DNA of 34,380 nucleotides. It comes from Candidatus Parcubacteria bacterium (GTDB lineage: Bacteria > Patescibacteriota > Minisyncoccia > Phycocordibacterales > UBA918). The notes below the pieces were generated by a model that was not told the DNA's origin, searched no databases, and saw nothing but the letters and a program-made list of their open reading frames with translations. The stretch spans positions 1 through 34,380 of the forward strand of contig JBJOQE010000042.1 in assembly GCA_046050105.1 (NCBI GenBank), given 5' to 3'. Both the position numbers and the translations under genes were made by a program. Positions 8,852-25,960 of this stretch are shown here, one piece after another (position 1 is the stretch's first letter; every line of letters begins with the position of its first letter).

Positions 8852-8927
8852 GTCGAGGTAGCTCAGTTGGTAGAGCACGGGACTCATAAGCCCGGGGTCG
8901 TGGGTTCAATCCCCACCCTCGACACCA
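8852..8927 (+). tRNA. tRNA with anticodon CAT (elongator Met or Ile2-lysidine type), CCA encoded
   Basis: Cloverleaf: gtcgagg/cctcgac acceptor stem, D arm gctc-agttggta-gagc, anticodon loop ctCATaa, T arm gtggg-ttcaatc-cccac and a terminal acca. Positions 31:39 form an A.G mismatch. Confidence 0.8.
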
Positions 8928-8962
8928 AGCGACAATTTGTAGCTTTTTTGCTATGATGTCGC

Positions 8963-9177
8963 TCGAGCACTTGCGGACTGAGTTTGCTATCGCAAATCGA
9001 CCGCTGCGCTCGGACGGTAGAGACAAAGCACAGTACTCGTTCGAGCACTTGCGGACTGAGTTTGCTATCGCAAACCGACCGCTGCGCTCAAGCACACACA
9101 ACGCACGATGATTGTTCGAGAGGCTGCGGACTGAATTTGCTACGCATACGCTACGCAAATCGACCGCTGCGCTCGGA
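8963..9177 (+). repeat. Three tandem copies of a 52-62 nt hairpin-forming repeat
   Basis: The copies lie at 8963-9014, 9041-9092 (nearly identical to the first) and 9116-9177 (carrying a 10-nt internal duplication). They are separated by unrelated 26- and 23-nt spacers. Confidence 0.85.
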
Positions 9178-9215
9178 CAAAGAATGAAAGCGAGCTTTCA
9201 TTCTTGTCCTCGCTT

Positions 9216-9289
9216 GCGGTCGTAGCTTAGCTGGTTAAAGCGCCGCCCTGTCACGGCGGAGACCGAGGGTTCAAGTCCCTTCGACCGCG
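9216..9289 (+). tRNA. tRNA-Asp (anticodon GTC)
   Basis: Cloverleaf: gcggtcg/cgaccgc acceptor stem, anticodon arm ccgcc-ctGTCac-ggcgg and T arm gaggg-ttcaagt-ccctt. Confidence 0.9.
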
Positions 9290-9295
9290 CAAATG

Positions 9296-9325
9296 AAAAT
9301 CCCAAAGTATACCTTTGGGATTTTT
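9296..9325 (+). terminator. Rho-independent terminator after tRNA-Asp
   Basis: The hairpin is aaaatcccaaag-tatac-ctttgggatttt, followed by a T-rich tail. Confidence 0.85.
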
Positions 9326-9328
9326 CTT

Positions 9329-9355
9329 ATTTGCGACGGACGAAGGGACTTGAAC
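9329..9355 (-). repeat. Inverted copy of the tRNA-Asp T-loop-to-3'-end segment plus trailer
   Basis: The reverse complement, gttcaagtcccttcgtccgtcgcaaat, differs from 9269-9294 (gttcaagtcccttcgaccgcgcaaat) by one substitution and one indel. Confidence 0.8.
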
Positions 9356-9398
9356 GGCGGAGCCGGTATACAAGACGACCGGAGGGAGTGCTTGAGGT

Positions 9399-9487
9399 GG
9401 AGAAATAGTGGCTACCCACTATTTCTCCGACCAGCGTTCTTATGAGCGAAGCGAATGAGAAAAAGCGGGTCAAGTCTCTTCGACTGC
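9399..9487 (+). repeat. Conserved core X (copy 1) joined to a tRNA-Asp 3'-end-like fragment
   Basis: It aligns with 18437-18528. The 13-bp hairpin differs only by compensatory changes and both copies share the 11-mer gagcgaagcga. The tail at 9470-9487 matches tRNA-Asp 9271-9288 at 16 of 18 positions. Confidence 0.75.
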
Positions 9488-9500
9488 AGGTCGATATAGT

Positions 9501-9568
9501 GAACACTTAGCACGATGCGAATACTTGGAGCATGTTGCGTAATGACTCGTGACCAAGTCCATGGCATA
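9501..9568 (+). repeat. Conserved core Y (copy 1)
   Basis: The 54-nt core aligns without gaps to 12326-12379. The flanks and the 11-nt loop gaatacttgga are conserved while the stem arms covary. Confidence 0.75.
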
Positions 9569-9604
9569 GTGTGGACAGATAACTTGCCAAGAAGGACGAT
9601 ATAG

Positions 9605-9952
9605 ATGAATGAAACTTGTGGATTAGCAGAGCAGTGCTGCGCTGCGTGCACACCGAAAACACCACGCTTAACGTGGCCGCAAACTAAAAAATTTCTTACA
9701 GAAGTCCCTCTCTGGCGGTATGAGTTTAGCCGGGGGGTGGGTACGCTCGTGCGACATTTTCGTTTCAACAGATTTCCCGACGCAATTGACTTTGTAAACA
9801 GAGTGGCAATAATTGCCGAAGCGGAGCGCCATCATCCTGATATCAAAATCGAGAACTACAATCAGGTCATCTTGATCATGACAACCCATGCCATCAATGA
9901 TTTAAGTGAAAACGATTTCATAATGGCTGCTAAGATTGATGTGATTGTCTGA
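9605..9952 (+). CDS. phhB: Pterin-4a-carbinolamine dehydratase (PCD/DCoH family)
   Basis: The EAERHHPD motif, the C..C N-terminal segment and the DFIMAAKID C-terminus resemble P. aeruginosa PhhB. Confidence 0.8.
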   Translation: MNETCGLAEQCCAACTPKTPRLTWPQTKKFLTEVPLWRYEFSRGVGTLVRHFRFNRFPDAIDFVNRVAIIAEAERHHPDIKIENYNQVILIMTTHAINDLSENDFIMAAKIDVIV

Positions 9953-10365: not shown

Positions 10366-12020
10366 ATGGAAACCCATTCTCATGGTGGTCGCGGTCATTC
10401 GCGGCGCCAAGCTTCCGGCGGGCACTCTCGCGCCGGCACAGGCCCTTCACGAGGGCGTACATCAAGCCCATCACGCCGACCATACCGCCCTCATGGTGGT
10501 AGCAGCGTTGGTGGCATTATCCAGGCAGATGACATAGGCGATACCATCATTACCGTTGGTACTGACACCTCAGATATGCCGGACATTGCTCCTGGCGCCG
10601 TGTCGAGCTATACACGCCCTACGTATGCACAAGGTGGTTCGTCTCGCACTTCGCGCGGCGGTACTTCACGTGGTGGTCAGTCGAGCTTCCGCGGTGGCTA
10701 CTCGTCACAACGAGGCGATTCGCGCACCCGTGCGTGGTCGCCCGAATCGTCTACTCGTGGCGGATCTGCACGCGGCGGTTCATTCCGTAGCGGCGGAAAT
10801 CGTTCCGCAAACGATTTTAATCGTGGTTCTCGCGGAGGAAGTCGTGGCGGTGGCCGCGGACGACGTTTCGTTGCACCCGACCTCGACATTGAGCGTTTTA
10901 TTGAAAAATCCAAACGTGAAAGCGCAGCGCATAAAGCAAATGCTTCAGCAATACCAGACCATGTAGTGACCAATAACTTTGCGTCGCTCATTTCTCATCC
11001 GAAGCTTCGTGCGCAGGTGACAGCAAAGGGGTACTCAATCCCTACACCGATTCAGGATAAGGCCATTCCGCACGTGCGAGAGAAGAAGGACATTGTAGGT
11101 ATTGCTAATACCGGTACCGGTAAAACGGCTGCGTTCCTTATTCCGCTTATTGACCGTGCGTTGGTGCATGAGCATGAAAAGACGCTCATCGTGGTACCGA
11201 CCCGTGAGCTTGCGACACAGATTTACGACGAGTACATCGGCTTTGCGCGTGGCCTCGGTGTTTCTGCGGCGGTCGTCATTGGTGGTGCGAACATTCGCCC
11301 ACAAATTGCGTCTGTGCGTAATGCACGTTTCGTCATTGGTACGCCAGGACGTCTTAAAGACCTCATCGAGCGCCGGGCGCTCGACATGAAGAGCTTCACC
11401 CAATCGTGCTCGATGAAGCCGACCGTATGCTCGACATGGGCTTTATCCCCGACATTCGTTTCCTTATGGAGCGCATGCATCACGAGCGTCACTCACTCTG
11501 TTTCTCGGCAACTATGCCGCCTGAGATTGAGCGTCTCGTTGGTGAATTTTTGAAGTCACCAATTAGCGTATCGACGAAGACAGGCACGACTGCACACTCG
11601 GTAGAGCAGGGCGTTATCCGCATTACTGAAGGTGCGTCAAAGCTCGGGCTTCTCGAAGAATTACTCCGTGACCCAGCACTCGAGAAGGTGATTGTGTTTG
11701 GCGAAACCAAGCACGGTGTGGAGCGTCTCACCAAGCAGCTTATGGCACGTGGTGTGCGCGCTGAGTCTATTCACGGTAACAAGAGTTCAAACCAGCGTAA
11801 GCGTTCACTTGATGCATTTAAGAGCGGGCGTGTGCGCGTGCTGGTGGCAACCGACGTTGCCGCACGAGGACTCGATATCAATGATGTCTCACACGTCATC
11901 AATTTCGACGTTCCTCACTCATATGAGGACTACGTACACCGCATCGGCCGAACAGGCCGTGGTGGCAAGGAAGGGAAGGCGCTCACCTTTGTTGGTGGCG
12001 ACAACCGCGACAGTCGTTAA
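10366..12020 (+). pseudogene. DEAD-box ATP-dependent RNA helicase with an N-terminal Arg/Gly/Ser-rich region, split by a 1-nt frame change near 11403
   Basis: Frame 1 (10366-11553) carries motif I (NTGTGKTAAF), Ia (PTRELA) and Ib (TPGRL). Frame 0 (from 11406) carries VLDEADRMLDMGF, SAT, the HGN...QR segment and HRIGRTGR. This could be a genuine pseudogene, a sequencing indel or a frameshift. Confidence 0.85.
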
Positions 12021-12068: not shown

Positions 12069-12147
12069 CGTATGGAGCATCTATTTTTCTAATATCAAGC
12101 TTCGTGGTATCATCGTGTCTGCAATTGAGAAATTGCGCGCAAAATAA

Positions 12148-12220
12148 GCCAACTTAGCTCAGTCGGTAGAGCACTTCCATGGTAAGGAAGAGGTCCCCGG
12201 TTCGATCCCGGGAGTTGGCT
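12148..12220 (+). tRNA. tRNA-Thr (anticodon GGT)
   Basis: Cloverleaf: gccaact/agttggc acceptor stem, anticodon arm cttcc-atGGTaa-ggaag and T arm cccgg-ttcgatc-ccggg. Confidence 0.9.
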
Positions 12221-12240
12221 CAAGGAGCGAAGCGACGTAG

Positions 12241-12292
12241 TGACAACTCAGTGCATGCCCTGCGGCATGCACGTCCGGGATCGAAAACCGGA
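12241..12292 (-). repeat. Inverted tRNA-Thr 3'-half copy interrupted by a perfect 9-bp hairpin
   Basis: The reverse complement of 12241-12250 is gagttgtcac, compared with gagttggctc (acceptor 3' strand gagttggct plus the first trailer nt). The reverse complement of 12274-12292 is tccggttttcgatcccgga, compared with the T arm. The hairpin gtgcatgcc-ctgc-ggcatgcac (12251-12272) lies between them. Confidence 0.6.
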
Positions 12293-12325
12293 GTATGTCG
12301 CTTTGCGACTACGAGGTGTGGTCAA

Positions 12326-12395
12326 GAACACTTAGTCTTTTGTGAATACTTGGAACAAAAGAATTAGTGATTCGTGACCGACCCGGGAGTTGGCT
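12326..12395 (+). repeat. Conserved core Y (copy 2) joined to an exact 14-nt copy of the tRNA-Thr(GGT) 3' end
   Basis: 12326-12379 aligns to 9501-9554. 12382-12395 (cccgggagttggct) is identical to 12207-12220. Confidence 0.8.
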
Positions 12396-12623
12396 CCGAG
12401 GAATGAAATGACGAGAAGGCAACTTTCGGGATCGAACAGATCCAGGGAGTGAGACATGCTGGGAGCATGTCGCAAGACCATGCCAGATATTTTATTGAGT
12501 TTACGAAATAAAATATCGACATGGTGTACAGATGCCGTAGGCAGGGCTCAAGGGTCGATGGTCATAACCGATTAAAGTGTTGGCTGCGTAGTGTAAAATA
12601 TCGCTCGTAGAAAAATAAAGTTT

Positions 12624-12696
12624 GCCATCTTAGCTCAGTTGGTAGAGCGACTGCATCGTAAGCAGTAGGTCCCCAGTTCGATCCTGGGAGATGGCT
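12624..12696 (+). tRNA. tRNA-Thr (anticodon CGT)
   Basis: Cloverleaf: gccatct/agatggc acceptor stem, anticodon arm actgc-atCGTaa-gcagt and T arm cccag-ttcgatc-ctggg. Confidence 0.9.
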
Positions 12697-12703
12697 CAAC
12701 GAT

Positions 12704-12734
12704 AAAAAGCACCGGTCATTTGGCCGGTGCTTTT
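12704..12734. terminator. Bidirectional terminator hairpin between tRNA-Thr(CGT) and a convergent small ORF
   Basis: The stem gcaccgg...ccggtgc is flanked by an A-run and a T-run. Confidence 0.65.
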
Positions 12735-18017: not shown

Positions 18018-18084
18018 ATGGTATGGTATTCACGCGCGAAAGCGCTTTTTTAGAACATCGCAGCTCGTAGTGAAGGGAAGGTAT

Positions 18085-18135
18085 ATTGCCAGATCGTCGT
18101 ATGGTGGGAATGAAACACCATCTGCATGTGGCACA
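18085..18135 (+). pseudogene. Degenerate 5' portion of a tRNA-Gln copy
   Basis: attgccagatcgtc (18085-18098) is identical to 18152-18165. The following sequence resembles the D arm and anticodon arm (caccatctgcatgtgg compared with caccctctggaggtgg) but cannot form a cloverleaf and has no T arm. Confidence 0.6.
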
Positions 18136-18225: not shown

Positions 18226-18231
18226 CACGGA

Positions 18232-18258
18232 GCAAAATGCCCTTCGGGGCATTTTTGC
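18232..18258 (+). terminator. Rho-independent terminator after tRNA-Gln
   Basis: The hairpin is aaaatgccc-ttcg-gggcatttt plus T. Confidence 0.8.
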
Positions 18259-18376
18259 GTAGTGTTGCTAGACGGCGCAGCGTTCGCAGAACGCGTTGCG
18301 CGGACTCGAAAGGTTGTCGATAGTTTCGACCATAGGGAGAAAATATCATACAACCTGAACTGGGTTCTGTAAGAAC

Positions 18377-18393
18377 CGAGTCCAAGTCTGGCA
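18377..18393 (+). repeat. Exact 17-nt direct copy of the tRNA-Gln 3' end
   Basis: cgagtccaagtctggca is identical to 18208-18224. It is preceded by ggttc and a 9-nt insertion. Confidence 0.85.
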
Positions 18394-18436
18394 TATAGAA
18401 CCTGTACGGCGGAGACGGGGTACCCTCTGGGTCGTC

Positions 18437-18528
18437 GGAGAAACAGTGAACACTCACTGTTTCTCCGTCCAGCGTTCTTGACGAGCGAAGCGAGTTTAGA
18501 AAAAGCGGGGACGAGTCCAAGTTTGGCA
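18437..18528 (+). repeat. Conserved core X (copy 2) joined to a tRNA-Gln 3'-end-like fragment
   Basis: It aligns to 9399-9487. The tail at 18512-18528 matches 18208-18224 at 16 of 17 positions. A tRNA-Asp anticodon-arm-like piece lies upstream at 18401-18420. Confidence 0.75.
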
Positions 18529-24334: not shown

Positions 24335-24687
24335 GTGAATCTTTTAAATCACAGTCGCAAAAGCCAAGGGGTCCGTGGCATGTCGAGCCAGGGAGTCCTG
24401 TTGATGCACTTGAGAGACGGCACGCATTTGAGCGTGGCACGATTGCCGATATGGTAAGCTCACTTCGTACCTTCGCAAAAAGTGAAGGGTTTACCTATGA
24501 TATTGAGGATGTTGAAGGAGGACAAGATATACAGGTGCCACCCGAATGCTTGGCTGCCACGCTCGGCCACTTAAAGCCACTTCTCAAAGACGCTAACGCT
24601 CTCCTCGAACAGCATAATCAACAGTTTCGTGTGCGTGTTCATTTGCACGGCACCCTCCTTGAACTTCGCGTCGTTTCTCACTCGTGA
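24331..24687 (+). CDS. Hypothetical protein (118 aa)
   Basis: Its start overlaps the MFS stop codon (ATGA). Confidence 0.5.
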   Translation: MSESFKSQSQKPRGPWHVEPGSPVDALERRHAFERGTIADMVSSLRTFAKSEGFTYDIEDVEGGQDIQVPPECLAATLGHLKPLLKDANALLEQHNQQFRVRVHLHGTLLELRVVSHS

Positions 24688-24733
24688 TTGCTATCCACAC
24701 TCCCTTGGTGGGGTAGGGTATACTATAGATACT

Positions 24734-25960
24734 ATGAATTACGTATCAATTTCTTTGCGTCGCTTCGGTCTGTGTGCACTCGCTCTCTCGGTTGTTTTTT
24801 GTATATACGCTACCACAGCACACGGAGCCACAGTTTGCACGCTTGATCGCGATTTGGAGTTTGGTGTCATCGGAGAAGATGTCCGTTGCTTGCAGCAATA
24901 TCTGAACACTAACGGATTTGTGATAGCCGACATTGGAGCGGGCTCACCGGGAAAGGAAACAGGAGAATATAAAGCACTCACTGAGCAGGCGGTGATGAAG
25001 TGGCAACGTGCACAGGGTATTGCGCCAGCAACAGGCTATTTCGGTACAAAATCTCGCGCTATGTACAGCACCATGGTAGGTGGTGAAGTGAAGGGGGCGG
25101 CAACCACAAATGAATCAGTACTCGAAACACAAAAGAAAGCACTTGAAGACAAAATAAAATCTCTCCAGGACATGCAACCTACGGTAGTACCCCCCAAACC
25201 GGTAAGTACACCTGCAGTTTCAAGTGACGAAAAAGAAGCGCGCGACACAATTATGGAAGCACTTGATGCTCTCGATGAAGCAGAAGATGTGGTGGATGGT
25301 GCTGACAGCGCGCCCGATATTGCGTCTGCAACTGACAACCTTAATGATGCGCGGGATGATCTGTTTGACGCCATGAAGGCCTTCTTTGCGAAGGAATACG
25401 AAGAAACTATTGAAATGGCAGAAGATGCACGAGGAAATGCAGAAGATGCTATTGATGATGCTGGTGGTTCAGAGGATGAAAATGATGCTCAAGAAAAAAT
25501 TGATGAGGTAGATAACGCTATTGATGACGCTGAAGATCGCATCGATGAGGCTGATGCAAAAGGCGACGACACTGACCGGGCAGAAGACTTGCTTGATGAG
25601 GCAAAAGACAAGCTAGATGAGGCAGAGGATGCGTTTGACGATGAAGAATACGAAGATGCAATAGACCTTGCTGATGAAGCAGATGATTTGGTCGACGATG
25701 CCATCGATAGTATCGGTGAGAGTGATGATACAGCGGACTTACTAGAAGAAGTGCAGGATGACTTGGCACGCGCACAGAAGCAAGTCAAAAATGCACAAGA
25801 TGATGATGAAGACGTGGGAGATGCAGAAGATTTACTCGACGAGGCTGAGGACGCACTTAACGATGCTGAAGATGCACTTGATAACGATGATGAAGACGAG
25901 GCTGAAGACTTTATCGACGAGGCGAAAGATCTCATCGCAGAGGCGCTCGATGAATTCTAA
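24734..25960 (+). CDS. Secreted peptidoglycan-binding-domain protein with a long Asp/Glu/Ala-rich repeat region
   Basis: A signal/anchor sequence is followed by a PG_binding_1-like segment (GEDVRCLQQYLN...AVMKWQRAQGI...GYFG). About 270 aa of acidic repeats follow (AEDLLDEAxDxL..AEDA). Confidence 0.7.
   Translation: MNYVSISLRRFGLCALALSVVFCIYATTAHGATVCTLDRDLEFGVIGEDVRCLQQYLNTNGFVIADIGAGSPGKETGEYKALTEQAVMKWQRAQGIAPATGYFGTKSRAMYSTMVGGEVKGAATTNESVLETQKKALEDKIKSLQDMQPTVVPPKPVSTPAVSSDEKEARDTIMEALDALDEAEDVVDGADSAPDIASATDNLNDARDDLFDAMKAFFAKEYEETIEMAEDARGNAEDAIDDAGGSEDENDAQEKIDEVDNAIDDAEDRIDEADAKGDDTDRAEDLLDEAKDKLDEAEDAFDDEEYEDAIDLADEADDLVDDAIDSIGESDDTADLLEEVQDDLARAQKQVKNAQDDDEDVGDAEDLLDEAEDALNDAEDALDNDDEDEAEDFIDEAKDLIAEALDEF

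Follow-up and report, generated by a model that had tools for sequence, protein, structure and literature searches.

The stretch of DNA analysed here, referred to as the window, comprises 34,380 nucleotides of a contig (JBJOQE010000042.1) from a Candidatus Parcubacteria bacterium. An Rfam search of the whole window at gathering thresholds returns just six tRNAs. Two of these genes, tRNA-Asp(GTC) and tRNA-Thr(GGT), are followed on the same strand by short structured units in which partial copies of the tRNA 3' end (tail copies), inverted copies of the same segment (antitails) and hairpins alternate. The features that concern us are the following, all on the forward strand.

9216-9290 (+): tRNA-Asp(GTC), the putative target gene of the array with X1 and Y1 (ARAGORN, Rfam)
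9295-9325 (+): intrinsic-terminator-like hairpin directly 3' of tRNA-Asp, the opening part of unit D1
9332-9355 (+): antitail, an inverted copy of the tRNA-Asp 3' half (reverse complement against the tail: 27 columns, 1 mismatch, 1 gap)
9399-9466 (+): X1 module, a long hp2-like hairpin, homologous to the hp2 hairpin of the relative L063, plus a different 3' module
9467-9488 (+): degenerate tRNA-Asp tail copy closing unit D1 (18/21 bases)
9498-9554 (+): Y1, a degenerate Y-type hairpin; loop GAAUACUUGGA at 9519-9529, arms at 9511-9518 and 9530-9537
9555-9568 (+): T-loop-like tail fragment after Y1 (CAAGTCC...); L063 and L055 have kept this flank at the equivalent position
12148-12221 (+): tRNA-Thr(GGT), the putative target gene of units T1 and T2 (ARAGORN, Rfam)
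12222-12284 (+): domain A of T1, the inverted tRNA-Thr 3' half (acceptor and T-arm complements), interrupted by a 9-bp hairpin
12287-12317 (+): hp2, a three-tier helix with Pa ACC/GGU, internal loop GGA/GA, Pb GUA/UAC and Pc GUCGC-UUU-GCGAC
12320-12379 (+): Y2, intact, with P1, bulged A, CACU/AGUG, U.U mismatch, 8-bp P2 and an 11-nt loop at 12344-12354
12380-12396 (+): tRNA-Thr(GGT) tail copy directly 3' of Y2 (15-nt identity)
12397-12612 (+): unit T2, older and decayed; it begins as T1 does, and a degenerate tail copy, GTGTTGGCT (12577-12585), lies near its end

An earlier note on this DNA had described Y1 (9501-9554) and Y2 (12326-12379) as two 54-nt segments that align without gaps, and this is what is found at these positions, with 38 of 54 bases identical. 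The common blocks are GAACACTTAG, TG.GAATACTTGGA.CA and TCGTGACC, the Y 3' end reading ...TTCGTGAC. The pattern GAACACTTAG-N8-GAATACTTGGA has exactly two matches in the window, where shuffled sequences lead one to expect 0.00. The two 8-nt arms around the loop had been noted to differ between the copies while staying complementary; direct reading confirms 6 of 8 pairs in Y1 and 8 of 8 in Y2. An exact copy of the tRNA-Thr(GGT) 3' end, reported as 14 nt, does begin 2 nt after Y2 and its identity actually runs over 15 nt (CCCGGGAGTTGGCTC). Similarly, the string said to be common to the start of Y1 and to X2, AGTGAACACT, occurs in the window at 9498 and 18445 only. Since two independent assemblies of the same organism (L053 and L054) contain the region at 99.8-99.9 % identity, it is not an assembly artefact. 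Individually, the two copies are of different quality. Compared with shuffled controls, the fold of Y2 is far better (z -4.3) and that of Y1 no better (z +1.5), so that Y1 is to be regarded as a degenerate copy. Y1 also lacks hp2, has a weak P1 helix and is the poorest member of the family described below.

What did not survive is the notion that Y constitutes a self-contained 54-nt core. When the copies are aligned, conservation continues about 40 nt upstream of Y2 and forms a further domain, hp2, so that Y is the 3' domain of a larger modular element. Together, hp2 and Y make up a two-domain structure of about 97 nt, of which Y represents the 3' hairpin. In hp2, a three-tier helix, the internal loop GNA/GA separates Pa from Pb, and an AU bulge lies between Pb and the hairpin Pc. 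Y is one long hairpin which, from the base upward, comprises the 8-bp helix P1 (GUCGNGAA/UUCGUGAC), a bulged A, the pairs CACU/AGUG and a U.U mismatch, above which two further pairs, the variable 8-bp helix P2 and the terminal loop follow. In ten elements from seven contigs, aligned with a covariance model of hp2 plus Y (R2), standard pairs occupy 91.6 % of the cells as compared to 68.4 % in column shuffles and 31-40 % with slid partners; fitting the alignment to the model favours structure, but the margin over the controls is still large. Both sides change in 25 of the 33 pairs among these ten homologues. That a hairpin and not a coding sequence is under selection, as proposed, is therefore well borne out. 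One G.U pair is retained in eight of the ten elements, and this points to the gene-sense strand as the strand that folds. Features such as this G.U pair, the conserved terminal loop and an internal loop of G.A type are characteristic of a functional RNA more than of a DNA site, which speaks against the reading that we favour below.

Rfam offers no family for this structure. Permissive searches of Rfam 15 find nothing over hp2 or Y, neither at E≤10 within 8900-9620 and 12100-12720 nor at E≤1 in the related loci L060 and L061. With the structured RNAs in that collection (group I and II intron domains, omegaRNA/HEARO, tRNA-like structures) the element shares a compact multi-helix covarying fold, conserved loops and the nearness to tRNA genes, but no Rfam 15 model matches either Y region at E≤10. 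Neither ARAGORN nor RF00005 detects a cloverleaf over the element, which contains partial and inverted tails only. A resemblance to domains V and VI of group II introns (a GAGCCG... start of hp2 and a bulged A 8 nt from an ...AC end) was dismissed, the helix geometry being wrong and an Rfam signal absent. The likeness of GAGAA(A)CAC to the hairpin ribozyme is superficial and no model matches. Our confidence in the hp2-Y structure and in its placement at the junction is high: irrespective of how it works, hp2-Y is a structured element with good support that lies outside Rfam.

Further copies exist in other genomes. Scanning one genome per species with the exact pattern gave two true further copies, one located 37 nt after tRNA-Lys in a Paceibacterota MAG (L001) and one after a truncated tRNA-like fragment (L002), the latter read by eye as ARAGORN makes no call there. 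The same scan of metagenomes gave three more: L060, with a copy directly after tRNA-Ile, L061, with a copy directly after rplL, and L059. In all, five further copies carry the same loop (type a) on other Parcubacteria/Paceibacterota contigs. The R2 model scores the six complete loop-a copies at 78-111 bits and in addition picks up four weaker relatives among the first search set plus another in L063. The family thus numbers about 11 elements, obtained mainly by an exact pattern that fixes loop type a, and because of these exact-pattern scans the census is small and biased towards that loop type. Synteny walks from homologues of the pterin dehydratase led mostly to loci that were non-syntenic or had no DNA sequence.

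The terminal loop is less constant than the comparison of Y1 and Y2 had suggested. The 11-nt sequence is invariant, as claimed, within one subfamily only, and it varies across the family as a whole: on the same lower stem (CACUUAG...CUUAGUGA), the second unit of L061 carries GACUGAUAAGGA and L063 carries CUUCGUACCUCA. In the relatives from L001 (after tRNA-Cys) and L055, hp2 is retained and the 3' hairpin is a different one. In the X modules of the window, an hp2-like hairpin precedes a 3' module that differs again. The family is thus modular and Y is one type of 3' module. The idea that the conserved loop might be complementary to a tRNA finds no support. Complementarity to tRNAs or to a fixed partner within the unit amounts to a 7-nt match in the T-arm of tRNA-Gln and a G.U-containing match in tRNA-Asp, is absent for tRNA-Thr and tRNA-Lys, and varies in position from copy to copy. 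Pairing of the loop with the neighbouring tRNA was rejected, as the copies display no consistent complementarity.

Turnover of these units can be seen in L063, a syntenic relative with about 73-83 % nucleotide identity over the shared genes. After its tRNA-Thr(GGT), domain A and the 5' half of hp2 are retained, and a single degenerate tail copy stands in place of window positions 12310-12612, that is, the 3' half of hp2, Y2 and the whole of T2. Its tRNA-Asp locus contains a complete hp2 and a Y-type hairpin with the same 3' end as Y1 (GACTCGTGACCAAGTCC) and a differing upper stem and loop. Judged against this counterpart, Y1 looks like a chimeric copy in decay. Between tRNA-Gln and the ancestral tail copy, two mini-units are found in the window and a 1.65-kb insert in L063. 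The latter has no hp2/Y module beside the tail copy; tail duplication at such sites thus does not by itself require hp2-Y.

The compact and strongly covarying fold raises the question whether hp2-Y could simply be a small structured RNA gene (protein-binding, regulatory, or resembling a tRNA minihelix produced by read-through), either carried as cargo by small integrating elements or retained by the host, and without any role in recombination. Covariation at the level of riboswitches, together with the G.U pair, the bulged A, the U.U mismatch and the GNA/GA internal loop, is what such a gene would display, and the conserved 11-nt loop could close via tandem G.A pairs. At tRNA loci, antitail plus tail would mimic an acceptor/T-arm minihelix. 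Moreover, Y2 lies in a spacer between two tRNA genes that is not interrupted by a terminator and is for that reason probably co-transcribed. However, promoter-like sites are absent from within the units and several copies are placed behind a terminator-like hairpin, so that expression would be uneven between loci. Y1 is located behind a called terminator, several units lie between a terminator and the promoter of the next gene, and the copies in L001 and L059 follow terminator-like hairpins (none of them called as terminators by the scan) and precede the next promoter-like site. In addition, no Rfam family matches, the syntenic relative lacks Y2 and has a different loop at the Y1 position, and the family uses at least three unrelated terminal loops. 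The closing helix, finally, is built from whichever gene lies upstream, even from the coding sequence of rplL, for which insertion is the better explanation. We thus consider a plain RNA gene unlikely, although it is the alternative to be taken most seriously.

All elements are co-oriented with the upstream gene. Among the 11 matches at E<1e-3 on which the context counts are based, seven are situated at most about 200 nt 3' of a tRNA gene (Thr, Asp in three cases, Lys, Cys, Ile), two after rplL and one after the tRNA-like fragment of L002. The remaining one, in L059, is about 820 nt away from tRNA-Glu, and its unit begins right after an 8-nt copy of the tRNA-Glu end. As a negative control, three related helicase-homologue loci that are free of tRNA genes (53.6 kb) were searched and gave zero matches. 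The placement next to tRNA genes thus recurs elsewhere, but it is not specific to tRNA, given that in L061 the end of rplL is used. An intron-split tRNA was considered for L002 and rejected, a matching 3' acceptor strand being absent downstream.

At several loci, a copy of the upstream gene's tail begins 0-4 nt after the terminal hairpin ends at its base. This copy is exact for tRNA-Thr (15 of 15 bases) and tRNA-Cys (15 of 15); at tRNA-Asp and tRNA-Ile only weaker T-loop-like fragments follow the hairpin. The original claim that the module ends in a copy of a tRNA 3' end consequently extends to tRNA-Cys and rplL and, in weaker form, to tRNA-Asp and tRNA-Ile, but the tail copies of tRNA-Gln (17/17) come after other modules, X2 and unit Q1. 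The copy at rplL encompasses the last 16 codons plus the stop codon, with 12 mismatches in 45 aligned nt. The 19-codon stretches encode the peptides AEALKAKLEEAGAKVTLK and DEALKAKLEEAGAKVTLK, which are one residue apart. Near-identical peptides combined with this many nucleotide mismatches indicate that the two rplL tails evolved as coding sequence in different lineages. Template and variable repeats of a diversity-generating retroelement (DGR) were rejected for this locus, since the differences between the rplL copies are not adenine-specific.

Between the gene and hp2, seven of the 11 units possess a significant inverted copy of the tail. This antitail fits the functional tail upstream better than the displaced copy downstream. 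In the first rplL unit, it matches 13 of 14 positions upstream and has no significant match downstream; in the window, the tRNA-Asp antitail matches upstream over 27 columns (1 mismatch, 1 gap) as compared to 12 of 13 downstream. Antitails are absent from L060 and L002, and in L001-Lys and L059 there is no significant tail copy after Y, so that some members fit the reading favoured below less well. The class represented by these last two has a terminator-like hairpin, hp1 (CACGA...CGUGUG), whose stem runs into the last bases of the tRNA or the tail copy. Whole units fold as three-way junctions consisting of P0 (tail paired with antitail), hp2 and Y, with z -5.1 in L063. Units can also be stacked. 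At rplL, unit 1 is followed by tail copy 2, and unit 2 by tail copy 3, which has diverged further; at tRNA-Gln, two units with two tail copies are present, and at tRNA-Thr, T1 is followed by T2.

Tyrosine integrases are known to target the 3' ends of tRNA genes and of rplL, and small att-flanked remnants, the CIMEs, accrete in tandem (PMC5704250). The units could thus be decayed, CIME-like scars of such islands at tRNA and rplL att sites, hp2-Y being a leftover arm, terminator or regulatory hairpin. Tail duplications, a crossover in the T-loop, tandem accretion and a recoded rplL tail are textbook integrase features (PMC5704250). CIMEs share with the units the 3'-end sites in tRNA genes and rplL, the direct tail copies at the borders, the lack of an integrase, the tandem stacks and the replacement tail (PMC5704250). 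A direct repeat of the 3' segment of the target on both sides, as expected of an island, is present at Thr, Cys, rplL and Gln; kept att sites, absence of recombination and transfer genes and tandem accretion, all features of CIMEs, are likewise observed, and the definition of a CIME also includes descent from a larger parent. In the relative L055, a tyrosine integrase actually adjoins tRNA-Thr(GGT), and the 1.65-kb insert at the tRNA-Gln site of L063 points in the same direction. However, CIMEs usually measure kilobases, whereas the units here measure 130-200 bp, are free of ORFs and contain no integrase: none of the seven loop-a copies belongs to an integrase-containing unit. Six of these seven units are shorter than about 200 nt and have the same ordered architecture, where random decay should produce variable end-points. 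Moreover, compensatory pairing alongside near-invariant loops and a near-invariant lower stem across genomes would not be expected of scars. The ordered architecture, the covarying junction fold and the internal inverted tail have no equivalent in CIMEs, nor did we find a parent integrase element.

The search for such a parent extended to collections of mobile elements. Three scans of viral contigs with loosened patterns yielded 50 chance matches and then none. BLAST against phage records returned two 40-nt pieces only (22 % of the query, E 4e-3), which we take as chance, and plasmid records gave no match. No larger element bearing the module was thus found in the viral contigs and the phage and plasmid records searched. 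Overall, we regard an origin of the units as scars as rather improbable.

Neither do the neighbouring genes provide a candidate enzyme. The ORFs around the copies (about 160 kb of loci) gave no domain of a recombinase, transposase, nuclease or reverse transcriptase, and the same loci contain no Y1 HUH transposase, RAYT or TnpB. The integron integrase gene intI is missing from the window and from the loci examined. These results bear directly on single-strand transposition of the REP/REPIN or IS200/IS605 type, in which an HUH (Y1) transposase encoded elsewhere would mobilise the units and the antitail would act as a long guide. The order guide, hairpin, cleavage site in such elements does match that of antitail, hp2/Y and tail, and the units are likewise small, protein-less, intergenic, strand-specific and located just after genes. 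Strand-specific subterminal hairpins with a bulged base, an internal guide and protein-less derivatives after genes are common to both. In IS608, 4-nt guides pair with the cleavage or target site. However, pairing here involves 8-27 nt instead of 4, and elements of this kind are not known to duplicate or replace their target, while tails of 14-50 nt are duplicated in our units and rplL is even recoded. With no Y1 transposase or TnpB at the loci examined and a copy number that seems low (two Y in 34 kb and none in the 53.6 kb of tRNA-free DNA), transposition of this type appears improbable. The units do not qualify as MITEs either, which have terminal inverted repeats of their own and a short target-site duplication of fixed length, given that their inverted segments are copies of the target gene and that the duplications measure 8-50 nt and are non-identical at rplL.

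Another arrangement with a programmable part would be an RNA-guide scaffold, similar to a TnpB omegaRNA or to the homing crRNA of CRISPR-associated transposons, with the tail copy as the guide towards the tRNA gene. Type V-K CRISPR-associated transposons are indeed known to use homing guides directed at tRNA genes, and a roughly 100-nt scaffold that runs directly into 14-17 nt of tRNA gene sequence is laid out like a 3'-guided RNA. However, no copy is adjoined by a nuclease or transposase gene, and neither an omegaRNA nor a CRISPR family of Rfam matches. TnpB/IscB omegaRNAs and CRISPR guides have an effector gene, which is missing here, and the supposed guide is paired with the internal antitail and varies in length from 0 to about 50 nt instead of being fixed. 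At rplL, it would mismatch the functional gene at 12 of 45 positions. This last alternative is thus very improbable indeed.

In its logic, the reading favoured below comes closest to IS200/IS605 ends and to the attC sites of integron cassettes, which are likewise small, stacked and non-autonomous and have a site conserved in structure over sequence. In attC, an outer helix (R''/R') encloses inner hairpins and the crossover occurs at the base of the fold, so that antitail, inner hairpins and tail parallel R''-L''/L'-R'. However, the RYYYAAC/GTTRRRY boxes are absent from all copies read: the base consists of GUCGNGAA/UUCGUGAC and the junction has no GTTRRRY. Furthermore, unlike in attC, the outer helix is personalised to the target, the inner hairpins show sequence conservation, and it is the gene-sense strand that the pairing favours. 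In contrast to integron cassettes, the units contain no ORF (with one possible exception) and use a gene tail as target instead of an attI beside intI.

On balance, we tentatively favour the view that Y forms the hairpin on the junction side of a cis-acting, folded recombination site within miniature, protein-less integration cassettes that replace the tail of their target gene. Tail duplications, a crossover in the T-loop, the recoded rplL tail and stacking are the hallmarks of site-specific integration at the 3' ends of genes. What argues for a folded cassette are the more unusual points, i.e., a mini-unit that itself seems to propagate, a covarying fold at the junction, the complement of its own tail and the many targets, one type of hp2-Y module being associated with many different target genes. 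To the conserved structure, its junction position, the tail copies, the antitails, the tandem stacking and the differences among relatives, this view adds that the fold would act as a recombination substrate, handled by a recombinase encoded elsewhere. It is a comparative reading of about 11 elements, neither the excised form nor an empty site having been seen directly, and our confidence in the mechanism is at most moderate. Given the discrete architecture and the lack of any parent element in our searches, it is apparently the mini-unit as such that propagates.

In its simplest version, the targets of a cassette of about 130-200 bp would be the 3' tails of conserved genes with high expression in Parcubacteria/Paceibacterota, namely tRNA genes, which it would enter in or close to the T-loop, and in one instance rplL. 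Such a cassette would contain, in this order, a replacement tail, a terminator-like hairpin, the antitail, hp2 and Y, and the crossover would take place at the base of Y. Upon insertion, the tail supplied by the cassette would complete the gene and the resident tail would be displaced to the far side of Y. Repeated insertion would stack the units, with the newest presumably beside the gene. When the cassette is free or single-stranded, its tail and antitail would form helix P0 beside hp2 and Y, and the folded molecule could be either single-stranded DNA or RNA. A circular double-stranded intermediate of about 150-200 bp is implausible and the model therefore needs a single-stranded or RNA form. 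The whole could be likened to personalised attC sites of integron cassettes or to the guide-plus-hairpin ends of IS200/IS605.

A bolder version of this proposal, which we consider doubtful, would be that of a previously undescribed, structure-guided integration system, in which mini-cassettes, mostly without and sometimes with an ORF, would combine a tail/antitail address with hp2-Y, depend on a recombinase encoded elsewhere that reads the fold as single-stranded DNA or RNA, and be rewritable to the 3' end of almost any conserved gene. If true, it would constitute an integron- or IS608-like system whose attachment site is programmable and defined by base pairing, the replacement tail keeping the gene alive.

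In practical terms, hp2-Y accounts for the odd copies of tRNA ends that are scattered around tRNA genes in this group, and offers annotators a marker for insertion junctions in candidate-phyla genomes. If correct, the cassette reading would link tail-replacing integration by tyrosine recombinases with single-strand, structure-specific recombination as known from attC and IS200/IS605 and suggest that a naturally re-addressable attachment site exists. For the organisms themselves, it would imply that these very small genomes hold minimal selfish or semi-domesticated cassettes, reduced to a replacement tail, a terminator and a folded site that copies its target.

The X modules, which end in a copy of a tRNA 3' end, seem to represent a sister form of the junction module composed of hp2 and the 3' hairpin Y. 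The features concerned lie in the window, in its syntenic relative L063, in a further relative (L055) and in another Parcubacteria/Paceibacterota contig with a Y copy (L059):

Window 8945-9180: three long imperfect hairpins (~78 nt each) in tandem, between tRNA-Met and tRNA-Asp
Window 9399-9488 and 18437-18528: X modules
Window 10366-12020: DEAD-box helicase gene with an RGG-rich N-terminal extension
Window 18077-18109 and 18227-18528, L063 17398-19076: tRNA-Gln site with partial copies
L059 9274-10047: 770-nt AT-rich insert between tRNA-Glu and the hp1-hp2-Y unit (hp1 being a terminator-like hairpin)
L055 8343-9619: tyrosine integrase gene at tRNA-Thr(GGT)

Both X modules begin with a 13-bp hairpin that is a homologue of L063's hp2 hairpin, continue with CCAGCGUUCUU...GAGCGAAGCGA...GAAAAAGCGGG and end in a tRNA tail copy, which is Asp-like in the first module and Gln in the second. 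The element GAGCGAAGCGA is also found at 12225, at the start of T1, an insertion unit located after tRNA-Thr(GGT). As the earlier note had pointed out, the 10-mer AGTGAACACT is indeed common to the start of the first Y copy (9498-9507) and the hairpin loop of the second X module (18445-18454); it has no third occurrence in the window, and the Y hairpin of another contig (L002) likewise opens with GUGAACACU. This sharing could be due to chance or be a trace of module recombination.

The three tandem hairpins, with fold z-scores of -1.3, -2.4 and -4.6, open with TCGAGCACTT, a sequence similar to the 5' strand in Y-type hairpins, and about four copies are present at the equivalent location in L063 (6920-7270). 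In the window, a frameshift at around 11400-11550, which is probably an assembly error of 1 nt, splits the DEAD-box helicase gene; the helicase is intact (350-351 aa core) in L063 and in another assembly of the same organism, L053. Elsewhere, the ORF at 24629-25960 codes for a highly acidic protein with degenerate repeats of 21-nt periodicity, belonging to repeat families D1 and D2.

The L059 insert is flanked at both boundaries by GGGTCACA and carries a 136-aa ORF without a Pfam match; it may represent an ORF-bearing cassette at this same site. At tRNA-Thr(GGT), a second insertion unit, T2 (12397-12612), starts like T1 (GAGGAATGAAATGACG vs GGAGCGAAGCGACG). Inside it are T-arm fragments in inverted orientation and, at 12473-12525, a long AT-rich hairpin; its end lies close to a degenerate Thr tail. 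L063 has nothing equivalent to T2, which is probably an old unit that has decayed. In L055, 39 nt separate tRNA-Thr(GGT) from the start of the integrase gene that follows it, and a 38-nt copy of this tRNA's 5' part that includes the anticodon loop is located 158 nt upstream. This arrangement suggests a second class of recombination events, at the anticodon loop.

In the window, tRNA-Gln is preceded by a partial 5' copy of itself, 68 nt upstream, and followed by two tail copies. The corresponding ancestral tail copy in L063 is 1.65 kb away from the tRNA, the interval containing a 358-aa ORF that matches nothing in Pfam, together with a truncated SET-domain gene. Since the window and L063 thus carry different inserts at tRNA-Gln, this site is a hotspot used by differing inserts.
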